From Escherichia coli (GTDB lineage Bacteria > Pseudomonadota > Gammaproteobacteria > Enterobacterales > Enterobacteriaceae): a DNA stretch of 64,000 nt. How positions within the stretch are numbered: the first letter of the stretch is position 1; each line of letters opens with the position of its first letter. Of the stretch, positions 3,678 through 30,899 are shown piece by piece. A model generated the notes under the pieces. It had not been told where the DNA came from. It searched no databases and saw nothing but the letters and a program-made list of their open reading frames with translations. A program made the position numbers and the translations under genes. The stretch lies in NCBI RefSeq assembly GCF_013315695.1, contig NZ_CP054353.1, one strand, 5' to 3'.

Positions 3678-4657
3678 TTGAACATCCTCGTCGCCATAAT
3701 GACAAAAACAGGCGCACCAACTAACGCCGTCATGACACCGGTCGCTAATTCATGGGGCGTGAAAAGCGTACGGGCAATAATATCTGCCAGTAATAACAAA
3801 AGTGCGCCGACACAAGCTGAAAGAGGGAGCAGAACGCGCAGATCCGCTGATACCAGGCGCCGGACAATCTGCGGTACTAGCAGGCCGACAAAACCAATGG
3901 GGCCAGCAATCGATACGGCTGCGCCACAGAGCAACGCGATCGCAAGCAGGGTGAATGTTCGCGTGCGGAGTACAGAGACGCCCAGCCCCTGCGCCATGCG
4001 ATCGCCCAGTGCCAACATGTTAAGGGAGGGTGCAAGGTAAAGGGCTAACACAAATCCCCCCAGAGAAAACCAGGCGGACGTACCCAGCGTCGCCCAATCC
4101 TGCCCCGCTAAATCACCTGCTAGCCATGTCCGCATCGCCAGCAGTGTTTGTTCGTCAAGAATCAGGATTGCAGCCGTTATTGAGGACACGAACGCCGATA
4201 GCGCCACGCCGCATAAAGTAACTTTCATTGGCGTTAACCCTGAACGCCCTGCGGAGGAAAGCAGCAATATCAACAGGAACAATAACGCGCCGCCCGTAGA
4301 TGCCAGCAGTGGGCGTCCAACCGGAAAGGCCAGCCCAAGCGCACTGGCAGCAACGACAGCAAGAGCGGCTCCGGCATTTAAGCCTAAAATATGTGGCTCC
4401 CCCAATGGGTTACGAATGACAGCCTGCAACAAAGCACCAGCAACTCCAAGAGAAGCACCGGTAAGCAATGCTGCCGCTAAACGCGGCAAACGGAGTCTTA
4501 CAATTACGTTGTGATCGAAGTTTTGCGGTTCAAAATGAAGAAATGCCTGCAATACCGTTTGTGGTGCAATAAATCGGGCACCAATCCCTGGATATACCAC
4601 GCATCCCACCAGCAGTAAGGCGAGGAAAATTACAGTAACCAGCCCTGTGCGCATCAT
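3674..4657 (-). CDS. ABC importer permease, FecCD family
   Basis: 327 aa polytopic membrane ORF; 4-nt overlaps with both neighbours. Confidence 0.8.
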   Translation of the reverse strand: MMRTGLVTVIFLALLLVGCVVYPGIGARFIAPQTVLQAFLHFEPQNFDHNVIVRLRLPRLAAALLTGASLGVAGALLQAVIRNPLGEPHILGLNAGAALAVVAASALGLAFPVGRPLLASTGGALLFLLILLLSSAGRSGLTPMKVTLCGVALSAFVSSITAAILILDEQTLLAMRTWLAGDLAGQDWATLGTSAWFSLGGFVLALYLAPSLNMLALGDRMAQGLGVSVLRTRTFTLLAIALLCGAAVSIAGPIGFVGLLVPQIVRRLVSADLRVLLPLSACVGALLLLLADIIARTLFTPHELATGVMTALVGAPVFVIMATRMFK

Positions 4658-5463
4658 ACTTTTTCTACACCACGAAACGGCATGAAGAACGGCTTTCCCG
4701 TCAGAGGATTTATTGATGCGTGAACATCAACGTCAAAGACAGCTTTTACCAGCTCAGGCGTGCAATGCTCCCCCTCATTCAACACACGCACCACTTTCCC
4801 CTGGCGTAAAAATATCAACGTATCGCCATAATTGACGGCAAAATTCAGATCATGCAACACCACGACGACTGTACGCCCGTGATGACGTGTTAAATCATGT
4901 AATAACTCAAGAATTTCAACCTGATAACGTAAATCAAGCCAGGTTGTGGGTTCATCCAGCAGGATATAAGGCGTCTTTTGCGCCAACACCATCGCAATCC
5001 AGCAACGCTGACGCTGCCCGCCAGAGAGTTTTTCAACAGGTAAATGTGCAAACTCCTGCGTACCCGTTAATTTCAGGGCCTCTTCTACCGCCAGCTCATC
5101 GGCGTCGCTCCATTGACGAATGAAATTCTGCCAGGGAAAACGCCCACGCGACACCAGTTCATAAACGGTTAAGCCCTCCGGCAATAATGGCGACTGCGGC
5201 AAGATCCCAAGTCTACGGGATAACGCTTTCGTTGGTTGCTCGTGAATCGCTTTGCCATCAAGCAATATCGAACCGCCCATGGGTTGCAAGATACGTGCAA
5301 TGGTGCTGAGCAACGTCGACTTTCCACAGCCGTTTGCCCCAACCAGAACGGTCATTTTTTCTGTGGGAACGGAGAAAGAAACACCATCAACAATGATCTT
5401 CTTGTGATACCCGGCAGAAACATTGTCGAGGATCAGCCCCTGCCCTTTTGCGTTATGTGCCAC
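4654..5463 (-). CDS. ABC importer ATP-binding protein (FecE-like)
   Basis: Walker A GANGCGKST, ABC signature LSGGQRQR, Walker B ILLDEPT. Confidence 0.85.
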   Translation of the reverse strand: MAHNAKGQGLILDNVSAGYHKKIIVDGVSFSVPTEKMTVLVGANGCGKSTLLSTIARILQPMGGSILLDGKAIHEQPTKALSRRLGILPQSPLLPEGLTVYELVSRGRFPWQNFIRQWSDADELAVEEALKLTGTQEFAHLPVEKLSGGQRQRCWIAMVLAQKTPYILLDEPTTWLDLRYQVEILELLHDLTRHHGRTVVVVLHDLNFAVNYGDTLIFLRQGKVVRVLNEGEHCTPELVKAVFDVDVHASINPLTGKPFFMPFRGVEKV

Positions 5464-8041: not shown

Positions 8042-9937
<1,896 letters not shown>

Positions 9938-22689: not shown

Positions 22690-22930
22690 TGGTTACCAGA
22701 ATCAGGGCAGTCTTAGGAGTGGCGGCATATAGCCAAAATAACGTGAGCGGGTCCATGCCCGACAGAATCGTTACTCTCTCCCATCCGGACTCTAACCGTC
22801 GGCCCCGGAATTACACCGGATCTGCTGTCCTTTGAGTTCGCACCCAAAGCGCTCGCGGGCTTTCAACTGAGTTGATTTACCGCCGGTGGGGAATTTCGCC
22901 CCGCCCTGAGAATAAGCGGATTCACTATAA
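22690..22930 (-). ncRNA. sroG: FMN riboswitch (RFN element) in the ribB leader
   Basis: minus-strand sequence AGGGCGGGGCGAAATTCCCCACCGGCGG ... GGATGGGAGAGAGTAACG matches RFN conserved blocks; bounds approximate. Confidence 0.7.
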
Positions 22931-23841: not shown

Positions 23842-24471
23842 ATGATTTTATTCGCCGACTATAACACCCCTTATCTTTTCGCTATTTCCTTTGTACTGTT
23901 GATCGGCCTTTTAGAAATTTTTGCGCTTATCTGCGGTCACATGCTCTCCGGTGCACTTGATGCACATCTTGACCATTATGATTCCATAACCACAGGTCAT
24001 ATTAGCCAGGCACTTCATTATCTCAATATCGGAAGATTGCCAGCTCTCGTCGTTCTTTGCTTACTGGCTGGTTTTTTTGGTCTTATTGGCATCCTGTTGC
24101 AGCATACCTGCATCATGGTCTGGCAATCACCACTCTCGAACCTGTTTGTGGTTCCTGTCAGTTTACTGTTTACGATTATTGCGGTGCATTATACCGGTAA
24201 AATAGTTGCGCCCTGGATTCCACGCGATCATAGCTCAGCTATTACAGAAGAAGAATATATTGGTAGCATGGCGTTAATTACCGGTCATCAAGCCACTTCA
24301 GGTAATCCCTACGAAGGAAAACTCACCGATCAATTTGGCCAAATACATTATTTACTACTGGAGCCTGAAGAAGGAAAAATTTTCACTAAAGGAGACAAAG
24401 TGTTAATTATTTGCCGACTTTCTGCAACTCGATATTTGGCGGAAAACAATCCCTGGCCCCAAATATTGTAA
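23842..24471 (+). CDS. yqiJ: NfeD-like inner membrane protein YqiJ
   Basis: 209 aa membrane ORF with C-terminal OB-like domain. Confidence 0.8.
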
Positions 24472-24497
24472 TTTATTAATCAAAAGGAAATTTAATA

Positions 24498-26159
24498 ATG
24501 GATGATATTGTTAATTCTGTGCCCTCCTGGATGTTTACCGCGATTATTGCCGTATGCATTCTGTTTATTATTGGAATTATTTTCGCCAGGCTCTATCGTC
24601 GCGCTTCGGCAGAGCAAGCTTTTGTTCGTACTGGTTTAGGTGGGCAAAAAGTGGTAATGAGCGGTGGCGCAATCGTGATGCCGATCTTTCATGAAATAAT
24701 CCCCATCAATATGAATACTCTGAAGCTGGAAGTCAGCCGCTCAACCATTGATAGCCTGATTACGAAAGATCGTATGCGCGTCGATGTCGTTGTCGCTTTC
24801 TTTGTGCGGGTAAAACCGTCAGTGGAAGGTATTGCCACCGCCGCCCAGACGCTGGGGCAACGCACCCTGTCGCCTGAAGACTTACGTATGTTGGTTGAAG
24901 ATAAATTTGTCGATGCCCTCCGTGCAACAGCTGCACAAATGACCATGCATGAGTTACAGGATACCCGCGAGAACTTCGTGCAGGGCGTACAAAATACCGT
25001 TGCTGAAGATCTGTCGAAAAACGGCCTGGAACTGGAAAGCGTTTCACTTACCAACTTTAACCAGACGTCGAAAGAACATTTCAATCCTAACAACGCCTTT
25101 GACGCCGAAGGTTTAACCAAGCTGACGCAGGAGACGGAGCGCCGTCGTCGCGAACGTAACGAAGTTGAACAGGATGTAGAAGTTGCGGTGCGTGAGAAAA
25201 ACCGTGATGCGCTTTCGCGGAAGCTGGAGATTGAACAGCAAGAAGCGTTTATGACGCTTGAGCAGGAGCAGCAGGTTAAAACCCGTACCGCTGAGCAGAA
25301 TGCGAAAATTGCGGCTTTTGAAGCTGAACGTCGTCGTGAAGCAGAGCAGACGCGAATTCTGGCTGAACGACAGATTCAGGAAACAGAAATCGACCGCGAA
25401 CAGGCCGTCCGCTCAAGAAAAGTTGAAGCTGAACGTGAAGTTCGCATTAAAGAGATCGAACAACAGCAGGTCACCGAAATCGCCAACCAGACGAAATCGA
25501 TCGCTATTGCCGCCAAATCGGAACAGCAGTCACAAGCGGAAGCGCGTGCCAACCTTGCACTTGCAGAAGCGGTAAGCGCCCAGCAAAACGTAGAAACCAC
25601 TCGCCAGACCGCAGAAGCCGATCGTGCTAAACAAGTTGCCCTAATCGCTGCCGCGCAGGATGCAGAAACCAAAGCGGTTGAACTGACCGTGCGGGCGAAA
25701 GCAGAGAAAGAAGCCGCAGAGATGCAGGCGGCGGCGATCGTTGAGTTAGCCGAAGCAACACGCAAAAAAGGCCTGGCGGAAGCAGAAGCGCAACGTGCGC
25801 TGAACGACGCTATCAACGTACTTTCTGACGAGCAAACCAGCCTTAAATTCAAACTGGCCTTGTTGCAGGCGCTACCTGCGGTAATTGAGAAATCCGTGGA
25901 ACCAATGAAGTCCATTGACGGTATCAAGATTATTCAGGTCGATGGATTAAACCGAGGTGGTGCTGCGGGGGATGCGGCATCAGGCAGCGTTAGTGGCGGA
26001 AACCTGGCAGAACAGGCATTGTCTGCCGCCCTTTCTTACCGCACACAGGCACCGCTGATTGACTCCTTGCTCAATGAAATTGGCGTTTCAGGCGGCTCAC
26101 TGGCGGCATTGACTTCCCCCTTAACCTCAACAACTCCCGTCGAAGAAAAAACAGAGTAA
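24498..26159 (+). CDS. yqiK: SPFH/band-7 flotillin-like protein YqiK
   Basis: 553 aa; N-terminal TM, SPFH domain, long A/E/Q/R-rich coiled coil. Confidence 0.85.
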   Translation: MDDIVNSVPSWMFTAIIAVCILFIIGIIFARLYRRASAEQAFVRTGLGGQKVVMSGGAIVMPIFHEIIPINMNTLKLEVSRSTIDSLITKDRMRVDVVVAFFVRVKPSVEGIATAAQTLGQRTLSPEDLRMLVEDKFVDALRATAAQMTMHELQDTRENFVQGVQNTVAEDLSKNGLELESVSLTNFNQTSKEHFNPNNAFDAEGLTKLTQETERRRRERNEVEQDVEVAVREKNRDALSRKLEIEQQEAFMTLEQEQQVKTRTAEQNAKIAAFEAERRREAEQTRILAERQIQETEIDREQAVRSRKVEAEREVRIKEIEQQQVTEIANQTKSIAIAAKSEQQSQAEARANLALAEAVSAQQNVETTRQTAEADRAKQVALIAAAQDAETKAVELTVRAKAEKEAAEMQAAAIVELAEATRKKGLAEAEAQRALNDAINVLSDEQTSLKFKLALLQALPAVIEKSVEPMKSIDGIKIIQVDGLNRGGAAGDAASGSVSGGNLAEQALSAALSYRTQAPLIDSLLNEIGVSGGSLAALTSPLTSTTPVEEKTE

Positions 26160-26319
26160 ACCCTCTTCTATGAATAATCCCTGGCCCAAAAAGCCGGGGA
26201 TTTTTTATATCTGCGTTCCGCTAAAAAGTACAAATGTTCAGGTTGTTACAGCGTTTTTCGAGCCGACTCGGGGAAGAGAAAACTGCATAAGAGAAAGCAT
26301 TGCGCGGGGTCTGGCGCTC

Positions 26320-26480
26320 ATCAACAATCGGGGAGTCAGCAAGGGGCTGAAACGGGAAAGCCCCTCCCGAGGAAGGGGCCTTATAGAAGGAAAGGGTTAT
26401 GATGAAGTTCGTCATCATACTGGTTGTGTTGTTACTGTTAAGTTTCCCGACTTACTAACAACTCATCAGAGGGGGGAGAA
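26320..26480 (-). ncRNA. Sib-type antisense RNA (antitoxin) overlapping the ibs ORF; bounds approximate
   Basis: inferred from the ibs ORF and flanking GC hairpins (ggggct...agcccc, cccctcc...ggaagggg); K-12 carries sib/ibs loci between yqiK and hldE. Confidence 0.45.
26399..26458 (+). CDS. Ibs-family type I toxin (19 aa hydrophobic peptide MMKFVIILVVLLLLSFPTY)
   Basis: tiny ORF with AAGGAAAGGG RBS; peptide nearly identical to E. coli Ibs toxins. Confidence 0.65.
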   Translation: MMKFVIILVVLLLLSFPTY

Positions 26481-26577
26481 ATCCTCCCTTACCCTTGTTC
26501 CTTTACTTTAGGTTGAAAAAACAACAGCGTCAATAGGTCTATCCGGCACAACGCGAGAACTGTGAAGCGCTTTCCGG

Positions 26578-28011
26578 TTAGCCTTTTTTATCCTGTTGGA
26601 TCTTCTTGATAATGTTAGTGGTCGAGCAACCGTCTTCAAAGTTGAGCACCAGCACTTCGCCACCATTGGCCCAGACTTCTTTACTCCCGGCAATCTCTTC
26701 TGGTTTATAATCGCCGCCTTTCACCAGCAGGTCTGGCAGGATCCCGGCGATCAAGCGCTGCGGCGTGTCTTCTTCAAACGACACCACCCAGTCGACCGCT
26801 TCCAGTGCGCCCAGCACAATCATACGCTGTTCGAGCGGGTTAACGGGGCGGGAATCCCCTTTCAGCCGTTTGGTGGAGGCATCGCTGTTGACGGCGACAA
26901 TCAAACGGTCACCCAGTTTACGGGCATTTGCCAGATAAGAGACGTGTCCGGCGTGCAGGATGTCAAAGACGCCATTGGTCATCACCACTTTTTCACCGCG
27001 TTTACGCGCTGCCGCTACAGCAAGCTTCAGTTCCTCTTCGGTCATCACGCCAAAGCCGGTATCTGCACGTCCACGTACTGCATTTTCCAGCTCGATCGGC
27101 GAAACCGTGGATGTCCCCAGTTTGCCGACCACCACACCAGCCGCCGCATTGGCAAAGAAGCAGGCTTCTTCCAGCGAATTACCCGCTGCCAGCGTTGCCG
27201 CCAGGACACCAATCACCGTGTCGCCCGCACCGGTAACGTCATACACTTCCTGCGCCTGGGTTGGCATATGCAGCGGCGCTTTACCCGGTTGCAGCAGCGA
27301 CATACCCTGTTCGGAACGGGTCACTAACAGAGCCGAGAGTTCGTAATCGGCAATCAGTTTCATGCCGCGCTCAACAATCTCTTCTTCGGTTTTACATTTA
27401 CCGACAACAGCTTCAAATTCCGAGAGATTCGGCGTTAACAGCGTAGCGCCGCGGTAGCGCTCAAAATCGGTACCTTTTGGATCAATCAGCACCGGAACAC
27501 CCGCTTTACGCGCCAGTTGGATCATCTGCTGTACGCTTGCCAGCGCACCTTTGGCGTAGTCAGAAAGCACCAGCGCGCCAATCGAACTCAGCGCCTGATT
27601 AATCCGTTCGTGCAGCGGCTGCGGATCAACACCTTCGAAACCTTCTTCAAAATCCAGACGAATCAGCTGTTGGTTGCGGGAAAGCACCCGTAATTTGGTG
27701 ATGGTCGGATGCGTCGGTACAGAAACGAAGTCGCATTTGACGTTGACGTCGGCCAGAGATTTACTCAGCGCGCGCGCCGCATCGTCAATGCCCGTTAACC
27801 CGACCAGGCGTGCATTAGCACCGAGAGAAGCGATATTCATCGCCACGTTAGCCGCGCCGCCCGGACGTTCTTCGATGGTATTTACTTTAACCACGGGCAC
27901 CGGCGCTTCCGGCGAGATACGGCTGGTGGGACCGTACCAGTAACGATCCAGCATCACATCACCAACCACCATCACTCCTGCACGTTCAAACTCTGGCAGC
28001 GTTACTTTCAT
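26578..28011 (-). CDS. hldE: bifunctional heptose 7-phosphate kinase / heptose 1-phosphate adenylyltransferase
   Basis: 477 aa ORF, sequence recognised. Confidence 0.95.
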
Positions 28012-28058
28012 TCCTGTCTCCTGAGAGATTCAAAATTTGCGCGCGATAATACCATACT

Positions 28059-30899
28059 TCATTCTTCCACCAGCCACTTCTGCCAGCTTGCCCGCACCAG
28101 ATCACGCTCTGCGGTGAAGCAATCCTCCGACACATGGCCCGGCAATTCCTGTAATGCCAGATGATGAAGTTCATCGCGCAGCGTAGTGTAAGCACGGGTC
28201 AGCACCATCGCTTCCTGCTCTTCCATAATGTCGTTTTGCGCCAGCAGCTCCAGAATACGCACGTTGTCTGACCAGCGCGTTAACTTCGGTTTTTCATGAG
28301 CGTAGCGCAACACCAGATATTGGGTAATAAATTCGATATCGGTAATTCCGCCTTCATCGGCTTTGATATCAAAGCGATCGCGATGTTTATTGCCGAGATG
28401 AGCGCGCATTTTCTCGCGCATTTCCCGCACTTCCGTTTGCAGGGTTTTGCCTTCGCGCGGCAGCGTCATAATCTCCCGGCGTACTGCGTCAAAGTGCGCG
28501 GTGAGCTGCGGATCGCCGTACACTACACGCGCACGCACCAGCGCCTGATGCTCCCACGTCCAGGCCTCGTTTTTCTGATAATCAGCAAATGCTTCTGCGG
28601 ATGTCACCAGCATTCCCGCCGCCCCGGACGGACGCAGTCGAGCATCCACTTCATACAAAATGCCGGAAGAGGTTCGCGTACTGAACAGATGCATAATGCG
28701 TTGCGCCAGACGCAGATAAAACTGTCGCCCGTCGATTTCCCGCTCGCCGTCAGTCATCGCATCCATTGGGCAATCATGGAGGAAGATAAGGTCAAGATCG
28801 GAACTGTAGCCTAACTCCCAGCCGCCCAGCTTGCCGTAGCCGACCACCGCAAAACCACGGCCTTCGCGATCGTTGAGGTGATTTGGCTTACCGTAGCGGG
28901 CCACCATTTGAACCCACGCCTGCTGAACAACGGCGTCAATCATGGCTTCCGCCAGCCAGGTTAAGTGATCGCTCACTTTCATTACCGGCAGCGTACCGGC
29001 GATATCCGCTGCCGCAATGCGTAACAGTTGCGCCTGTTTGAACTGACGCAGCGCCTCAAGCTGTTGTTCTTCGTCATCTTCCGGCACGCGCAGCAAATAC
29101 TGGCGCAACTCATCACGGTAAGCATCGGTCGCCGTCGGCTGGTAGAGAGTGTTTGGATCGAGCAGTTCATCCAGCAATAACGGATAACGCGCCAGCTGGC
29201 TGGCAATCATCGGCGATGCGGCACACAGAGAAATCAAATGCTTAAGCGCCGCAGGAAATTCACTAAGCAATTCTAAATAGGTGGTGCGGGTAACAATCCC
29301 CACCAGCAAGGCCGTAATGCGCGACAGCGTGACAGCAGCGTCTTCACGTGTACAGACATCTCTTAGCAGATGTGGCATCAGATGGTCGAGCACCTGACGT
29401 CCGCGTGGCCCGATTGTGCGCTTATCCAGCTCTTTGCGGAAATCGGCAATCAGCGTCAGCACCTGTTTGCGATCGTCCTCGCTAAGATGCGCCAGCACTG
29501 GTGTAGTGTCATCTTCCTGCAACGCGTCCTGCCACAGCTCACGCCACTGTTCCGACAGCGACTCTTCCTGAGTTTCACTTTCGTCGTCGCCAATCAATTC
29601 ATTAAACACCCGGCGCACATTGGTCATATGTCCGGTCAGCGCCCCAGTCAGTTGCTGCCAGTCAGCAAAGTCCATCGCCCACGCCAGCCGCGCACGGTTA
29701 AGCTCATCAGAAGTAAGCGTCTGGGTTTGTTCGTCGTTAATGCTTTGCAGCAGGTTTTCCAGACGCCGCAGGAACAGATACGCCACTCGCAATTGTTCAG
29801 CATCGTTTTCAGAAAGCAGATGCAGCTCGGCAATAGCGCTGAGCGTTGGTAGTAAAGAGCGCGATTGCAGCGACGGCTCGCGCCCGCCGCGAATAAGCTG
29901 GAATACCTGGACGATAAATTCAATTTCACGAATGCCACCCGCGCCAAGTTTGATGTTGTCGGTCAAACCGCGCCGACGCACTTCACGGGCAATCATCCCT
30001 TTCATGTTGCGCAGCGACTGAATCACGCTGAAATCGATGTAACGACGGAAAACAAACGGGCGCAGCATCGCACGCAACTCGTTAGCATAGACGCCTTCGC
30101 TATCGCCCATAATCCGCGCCTTGACCATCGCGTAACGCTCCCAGTCGCGCCCCTGCTCCTGGTAATAATCTTCCAGTGCCGCAAAGCTCAGCACCAGCGG
30201 GCCACTTTCGCCAAACGGACGCAGTCGCATATCCACGCGATAGACGAAGCCATCCTGCGTTGGTTGATCCAGCACTTTAATCAGCCGCTGCCCCATGCGG
30301 GTAAAAAACTGGGCGTTATCCAGTTCCCGGCGTCCGCCCTGCGTACAACCATGTTCCGGCCAGGCAAAAATCAGATCGATATCTGATGAGAAATTCAGCT
30401 CCCCACCGCCCAGCTTACCCATGCCTAAAATCAGCAGCGGTTGCGCTTCGCCCTGCGCATTGCACGGCGTTCCCCATTCGCGGCAGCAGGCGTCATACAG
30501 CCAGTCACGCGCCGCAACAATCAGCGTCTCCGCCAGATGGCTGAGCTGCTGCAAAATGCTCTCTTCAGTAACCAATGCCAGCGTTTGCGCCCAGGCGATG
30601 CGCACCATAATGCGCCGCCGGAATAGCCGCAGCTCGCGCATTAACCCGGCTTCGTCACTCACATTACTGAGCGCCTCCTGCCACCATGCAGAGTAATGCT
30701 GCCATTCGTCGGCCTGCGGCGGTTGGCTTTCCAGTTCCGTCAGCCACTCTGGATGCGCAATCACGCTGTCCTGCACAAAATCACTGAAAGTAAGTACCGA
30801 CTTCGCCTGTGCGCTAAGTGATTCGTCGGCTAAAGGCTCTGGCAGCCGCTCAACAACGGTCTGCCAGTACTGCTGTAACGGTGAAGAGAGCGGCTTCAT
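28059..30899 (-). CDS. glnE: glutamine synthetase adenylyltransferase/deadenylase
   Basis: ORF 28059..30992; start placed at [12 protein letters not shown] (946 aa). Confidence 0.95.

Follow-up and report, generated by a model that had tools for sequence, protein, structure and literature searches.

A single-copy ibsE/sibE-type toxin–antitoxin unit between yqiK and hldE of Escherichia coli

In Escherichia coli K-12, Ibs peptides are toxic when overproduced and are repressed by the cognate Sib RNA (PMC2943612, PMC8309996). The Sib RNAs overlap the whole ibs open reading frame (ORF) together with its ribosome-binding site and contain two recognition domains, TRD1 for the ORF and TRD2 for the initiation region, with an involvement of RNase III (PMC2943612, PMC4147584); in SibC, the target of TRD2 is the Shine-Dalgarno region (PMC2943612). 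Overproduction of IbsC leads to membrane depolarisation within minutes, and the N-terminal residues of this peptide, except V5, are dispensable for toxicity (review PMC8309996). The spacer between yqiK and hldE of K-12 carries two such units in tandem, sibD/ibsD and sibE/ibsE, at a spacing of 375–377 bp (MG1655 annotation), as the preliminary description of the present locus had stated, and for the same site of the AIEC strain NRG857c only an ibsE homologue in single copy has been published (PMC7232551).

We compared with these systems a locus found in a 64-kb stretch of E. coli DNA, which was analysed as a whole and is referred to here as the window. The yqiK-hldE spacer of the window measures 418 bp (26160–26577), and the spacer and its flanks hold the following features:

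24498–26159, plus strand: yqiK, left flank of the ibs/sib unit
26176–26208, plus strand: yqiK intrinsic terminator, a hairpin (26176–26202) plus T-run, found by terminator scan; it forms the opening segment of the repeat unit
26177–26552, no strand: one complete ibs/sib repeat unit of 376 bp, delimited by the K-12 repeat spacing and blastn of the unit
26300–26328, plus strand: predicted ibs promoter, with −35 TTGCGC (26300–26305), a 17-nt spacer, −10 AACAAT (26323–26328) and an inferred start near 26335
26355–26382, minus strand: predicted Sib intrinsic terminator, with a G+C-rich hairpin of 11 bp and then UUUCC in the predicted fold, coinciding with the equivalent of the K-12 SibE 3′ end
26355–26498, minus strand: Sib antitoxin RNA (SibE orthologue), predicted at 144 nt from the Rfam match, the mapping of the K-12 SibE ends and the fold
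26386–26396, plus strand: Shine-Dalgarno-like run GAAGGAAAGGG, read directly from the sequence, with AAGGA 7 nt before the first ATG
26399–26458, plus strand: ibsE-type toxin ORF, 19 codons plus stop, translated as MMKFVIILVVLLLLSFPTY
26505–26533, minus strand: sigma-70-like Sib promoter, with −35 TTGACG (26533–26528), a 17-nt spacer and −10 TAAAGT (26510–26505), from the promoter scan (9/12 matches)
26578–28011, minus strand: hldE, right flank of the ibs/sib unit

The preliminary description had proposed a 19-codon Ibs ORF with a ribosome-binding site between yqiK and hldE, and ORF, Shine-Dalgarno run and flanking genes were all found as it had stated; its reading of the locus as an ibs/sib type I toxin–antitoxin system was supported as well, as the alignment to K-12 sibD/ibsD and sibE/ibsE that it had suggested was run and identified the unit as the orthologue of ibsE/sibE. 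Overall, we consider it very probable that the locus is the ibsE/sibE type I toxin–antitoxin unit of E. coli, present in one copy, with an Ibs toxin repressed by Sib and with the D unit lost secondarily. The assignment to ibsE/sibE is made because of the full-length SIB_RNA match, the 18/19 peptide identity, the RefSeq annotation as ibsE and the position between yqiK and hldE. Two longer ORFs in the same region, of 113 aa (26170–26511, plus strand) and 65 aa (26221–26418, minus strand), were rejected as spurious; both lie across the region of the yqiK terminator and the Sib gene and are unannotated in the records inspected.

The Rfam model SIB_RNA (RF00113) matched the minus strand at 26533..26384 over its full length (model positions 1–147 of 147), with a score of 142.2 bits (gathering score 56) and an E value of 2e-29. 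The coordinates of this match are offset from those of the Sib RNA because the model evidently takes in the promoter and omits the terminator: when the spacer was aligned to MG1655, the curated ends of K-12 SibE fell on 26498 (5′) and 26355 (3′), and the K-12 ibsE ORF on 26399–26458. The ibs ORF and its Shine-Dalgarno run (26386–26396) are wholly contained in Sib on the opposite strand, and the antitoxin is thus encoded in cis. To judge from these signals, Sib would have its own promoter and its own intrinsic terminator, the predicted −10 element ending 7 nt upstream of the K-12-equivalent 5′ end at 26498. The 144-nt RNA is predicted to fold into a multi-stem body with a 3′ hairpin (−51.8 kcal/mol; z = −3.84 compared to dinucleotide shuffles).

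On the plus strand, the ibs promoter was placed at 26300–26328 because this block is nearly invariant across all aligned D and E units and because transcription from near 26335 would yield an mRNA of approximately 163 nt, ending near the Sib start, in agreement with the 159–163 nt of the mRNAs from ibsC and ibsD (PMC2943612). The consensus promoter scan gave no call at this candidate, whose −35 element matches at only 3/6 positions. The plus strand between 26335 and 26510 folds well (z = −3.49 compared to shuffles), with the Shine-Dalgarno region paired with the downstream CCCUUGUUCCUU. The yqiK terminator segment is nearly identical between the D and E units of K-12, SMS-3-5 and O26. The preliminary description had placed the locus at 26320–26480; the locus itself is real, but this span is too narrow, as Sib runs from 26498 to 26355, its promoter extends to 26533 and the ibs promoter begins at about 26300.

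The encoded peptide is 95% identical to K-12 IbsE (18/19) and 68–74% identical to IbsA–D. All nine columns that are invariant in IbsA–E are kept (M1, M2, I6, I7, L11, L12, S15, F16, Y19), and the peptide displays the signature of the Ibs family for which it was tested, namely a hydrophobic peptide of 18–19 residues with an MM(K/R) N-terminus, an II..LL core and a SFxxY C-terminus. Residue 4 is Phe here and Leu in K-12 IbsE. This Phe had been correctly pointed out in the preliminary description, but it is no peculiarity: of 5,426 genomes, 3,375 contain an exact match to the E-type 40-mer carrying the Phe codon, compared to 1,570 for the 40-mer with the K-12 Leu codon. Among the IbsE alleles of E. 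coli, Phe-4 is in the majority and the Leu-4 of K-12 in the minority. E. albertii has Phe-4 too, in its hldE-side copy, as does one of the two copies of Escherichia sp. E1V33. The Leu/Phe change would not be expected to affect toxicity because residue 4 lies in the N-terminal part that is dispensable in IbsC.

RefSeq annotates the ORF as ibsE in the genome of MS 21-1 (NZ_CP146670.1; WP_001387082.1, ‘type I toxin-antitoxin system Ibs family toxin’), which runs counter to the earlier suggestion that small toxic ORFs of this kind often escape automated annotation. The same protein is annotated in the single-copy strains Nissle 1917 and VG38-53E1 and as the hldE-proximal copy in the two-copy strains O26 RM10386, SMS-3-5 and 2014C-3075. 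The PGAP record of MS 21-1 contains the ibsE CDS and no ncRNA feature for the overlapping Sib (equivalent to 2696–2839 of that record), despite a SIB_RNA score of 142 bits.

Only one SIB_RNA match was found at the gathering threshold in the whole 64-kb window. A permissive Rfam search (E ≤ 1) of 24000–29000 returned no second Sib copy, only the opposite strand of the same site (29.9 bits), while blastn of the window with the window unit, the K-12 D unit, sibA, sibB and sibC gave no second copy beyond the self-match, and a six-frame scan of the window for the Ibs motif gave no ORF other than 26399–26458. For a 21-nt pattern over the first seven codons of the ORF, the expected chance count was 0.03; a match to this pattern with three mismatches at 8140–8160 was attributed to chance. 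No hidden or degenerate second copy was found by Rfam, blastn with five queries or the six-frame motif scan, which confirms the single copy of the preliminary description, where an overlooked second one had been allowed for, across the 64-kb window. The tandem arrangement of K-12 is not found here: there is one unit, in a spacer of 418 bp compared to 794 bp in K-12.

Single-copy spacers are frequent in the species. Of 5,426 complete E. coli genomes, 3,930 contain the 66-mer spanning the D/E junction of K-12. The 52-nt left end of the unit was counted 9,429 times across 5,408 genomes; if higher copy numbers are assumed to be rare, about 4,020 of these genomes would be two-copy and about 1,390 one-copy. 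These two independent estimates agree that roughly a quarter of complete E. coli genomes (about 26–28%; n = 5,426) carry one unit at this site, Nissle 1917 and VG38-53E1 being examples. A single copy at yqiK-hldE is a common strain polymorphism that was already known, and the variation of copy number and sequence between strains that had been put forward for these repeats is borne out across the 5,426 genomes.

Comparison of the repeats suggests that this lineage most likely came to its single copy by losing the D unit secondarily: homologous recombination between the 376-bp tandem D and E units would have removed the yqiK-proximal D and kept E. The D and E units diverge by about 8–10%, and the window unit shows 0 differences over a 236-nt core, and 2–3 over about 400 nt, from the E units of SMS-3-5 and 2014C-3075, compared to 15–21 from D units. 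In a neighbour-joining tree, the window unit fell into an E clade that holds every E-position copy, the hldE-side one of E. albertii among them (bootstrap 88%), and the D-position copies including the yqiK-side copy of E. albertii formed a second group with an only modest bootstrap of 64%. The flanks are closest to those of SMS-3-5 (hldE 99.3%, yqiK 97.6%).

The single copy could also be an ancestral, never-duplicated state that was kept in this lineage, a reading that we consider unlikely. A survey with one genome for each species gave a single unit between yqiK and hldE in Citrobacter youngae, Kluyvera sichuanensis and Phytobacter ursingii, which argues that one copy is ancestral for the wider family. 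However, E. albertii has a tandem pair at a spacing of 376 bp between yqiK and hldE, with a D-like and an E-like copy that each group with their E. coli counterpart; an ancestral single copy would be expected outside both the D and the E clade, whereas the window unit falls within E, free of differences from the E unit of SMS-3-5 over the core, and the identity of the flanking genes to those of the two-copy SMS-3-5 already points against it. Most economically, then, one copy would have been present in the enterobacterial ancestor before duplication, and the tandem duplication into D and E, old within Escherichia, would predate the split of E. coli and E. albertii. Escherichia sp. E1V33 also has a tandem pair between yqiK and hldE, and its units (4152–4672 of the compared segment) group with each other and not with the D and E clades, while their peptides have the C-termini SFQAY and SFHAY, as in IbsA and the outgroups; this may reflect gene conversion or a separate duplication, and it complicates a history with one duplication. 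In Klebsiella spallanzanii, the Sib match between hldE and yqiK is in two pieces (556–653 and 777–821 of the compared segment) about 120 bp apart, which suggests that this unit carries an insertion or disruption.

Returning to the loss of the D unit, the crossover would have taken place within about 26177–26228, where the repeats are nearly identical over roughly their first 50 bp. The left half of the unit (26203–26345; 143 bp) is found exactly in 5 genomes and at about 98% in some 50, and its position in the two-copy strains SMS-3-5 and 2014C-3075 is upstream of the E-position ORF. Compared to K-12, this left half resembles D at 13 sites and the right half resembles E, and a D/E chimera was considered and rejected, as the whole unit matches the E unit of SMS-3-5 and 2014C-3075; the apparent chimerism arises because K-12 alleles were the sole reference. 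The 17 nt adjoining yqiK (26160–26176) resemble K-12 and not SMS-3-5, and the exact two-copy parent haplotype was not found among the strains compared. The single-copy spacer of HCM-24C-3 (601–1018 of the compared segment) contains a D-type ORF (MMKLVIILIVLLLVSFATY; WP_100249717.1) with an E-type hldE-side flank and appears to be an independent deletion with a different crossover point. Deletions at yqiK-hldE thus recur, because HCM-24C-3 kept the D-type ORF instead. With a copy number that varies by recurrent recombination of the 376-bp repeat, censuses of toxin–antitoxin systems should therefore count units and not loci.

By analogy with K-12, the putative function of the locus is that of a membrane-depolarising peptide repressed by a cis-antisense RNA, its transcription, toxicity and repression being inferred from the K-12 homologues. 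The plus strand would give an ibs mRNA of about 160 nt encoding a 19-residue hydrophobic inner-membrane peptide, which would depolarise the membrane when made in excess, and the minus strand would give a constitutive Sib RNA of about 144 nt, perfectly complementary to the ORF and the ribosome-binding site. Sib would begin to pair with the mRNA at two recognition regions, of which one lies in the ORF and the other covers the start codon and Shine-Dalgarno run; translation would be blocked and the duplex opened to RNase III, so that the toxin would normally not be made.

A locus of this kind could instead be a silent or decaying remnant, in which the toxin is not expressed or the small RNA alone is functional. 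The poor fit of the ibs promoter to the consensus would agree with such a remnant, as would the fact that deletions of chromosomal type I toxins in K-12 are not known to cause a phenotype. We nevertheless regard this as very unlikely: the ORF, its Shine-Dalgarno run and both the promoter and the terminator of Sib are intact, the exact Phe-4 40-mer is conserved in 3,375 genomes with an identical peptide across phylogroups, and the weak promoter block is shared with K-12 ibsD, for which the start of transcription has been mapped (PMC2943612).

Upstream of the predicted ibs promoter, at 26230–26290 (plus strand), lie about 10 SNPs that are shared only with SMS-3-5-like E units. This cluster is found exactly in 5 of the 5,426 genomes and at about 98% in some 50, and is unlike the alleles of K-12, O26 and Nissle 1917. 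Han et al. refer to unpublished sites for transcription factors that lie upstream of ibs promoters (PMC2943612). It is conceivable, if highly improbable, that the loss of the D unit and the divergent 26230–26290 allele alter how and when the remaining Ibs is expressed, and that copy number is a selected, phenotype-bearing polymorphism and not neutral repeat instability; if so, the copy number of the locus could bear on, for example, membrane-stress or persistence behaviour.

That two 376-bp tandem units were collapsed into one during assembly, as can happen to tandem repeats in short-read assemblies, is scarcely credible given that the complete genome of MS 21-1 has the identical 418-bp spacer, that four further complete genomes carry the exact 143-bp left part at only one such place each, that about 1,400 complete genomes including Nissle 1917 are single-copy, and that D and E units with a divergence of 8–10% would not merge cleanly into pure E-type sequence.

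Beyond bookkeeping, a recognisable ibsE/sibE unit that is already annotated and known has little significance. It illustrates that K-12 is a poor reference for what is normal at this site, as its Leu-4 IbsE and, to a lesser degree, its tandem arrangement are each one of several common states, and that even PGAP records with a call for the 19-codon toxin still lack the Sib antitoxin RNA.

Some features of the flanking genes and of other parts of the window were also recorded. Over the 3′ part of yqiK (25280–26159; 880 nt), identity was 92.5% to K-12, 91.7% to Nissle 1917 and 97.6% to SMS-3-5, and the annotation of O26 RM10386 lists yqiK as a pseudogene interrupted by an internal stop; hldE was 97–99% identical to its K-12, Nissle 1917 and SMS-3-5 counterparts. 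Judged by these identities, yqiK seems to be a mosaic gene of unusual diversity within E. coli. A full-length FMN riboswitch (RF00050; 120.9 bits, E = 1e-27) is located at 22769–22917 on the minus strand and is presumably the ribB leader. A tRNA with a CAU anticodon (GGCCCCUUAGCUCAG...) at 47356–47431 on the plus strand scored 73 bits with Rfam and was called tRNA-Met by ARAGORN. By its sequence and position we take it to be ileX, a tRNA-Ile2 with a lysidine-modified C34, in which case ‘Met’ is the usual mis-assignment.

Among the known systems, K-12 ibsC/sibC, the member that has been dissected by experiment, shares with the window unit a 19-aa hydrophobic peptide, a fully overlapping antisense RNA of about 140 nt and the Rfam consensus structure, but it is located between fau and serA, and its peptide and Sib RNA are only 68% and about 80% identical, respectively. 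Control of this ibs by SibC would not be expected, because Sib RNAs tell cognate from non-cognate ibs mRNAs (PMC2943612). The K-12 ibsE/sibE unit (b4666/b4611) is similar in its position next to hldE and in the placement of promoter and terminator, and the Sib RNA region differs at 5/195 positions; K-12 differs in carrying the second, upstream unit ibsD/sibD, in having Leu4 in place of Phe, and at about 20 sites of its E unit upstream of the ibs promoter (26230–26290). The ibsE peptide of SMS-3-5, 2014C-3075, O26 RM10386, Nissle 1917 and MS 21-1 is identical to that of the window, the first three of these strains also retaining the D unit that the window lacks. Nissle 1917 is single-copy like the window but has another allele upstream of the ibs promoter (21 differences over 26177–26340), whereas in MS 21-1 the whole 418-bp spacer is 100% identical to that of the window.
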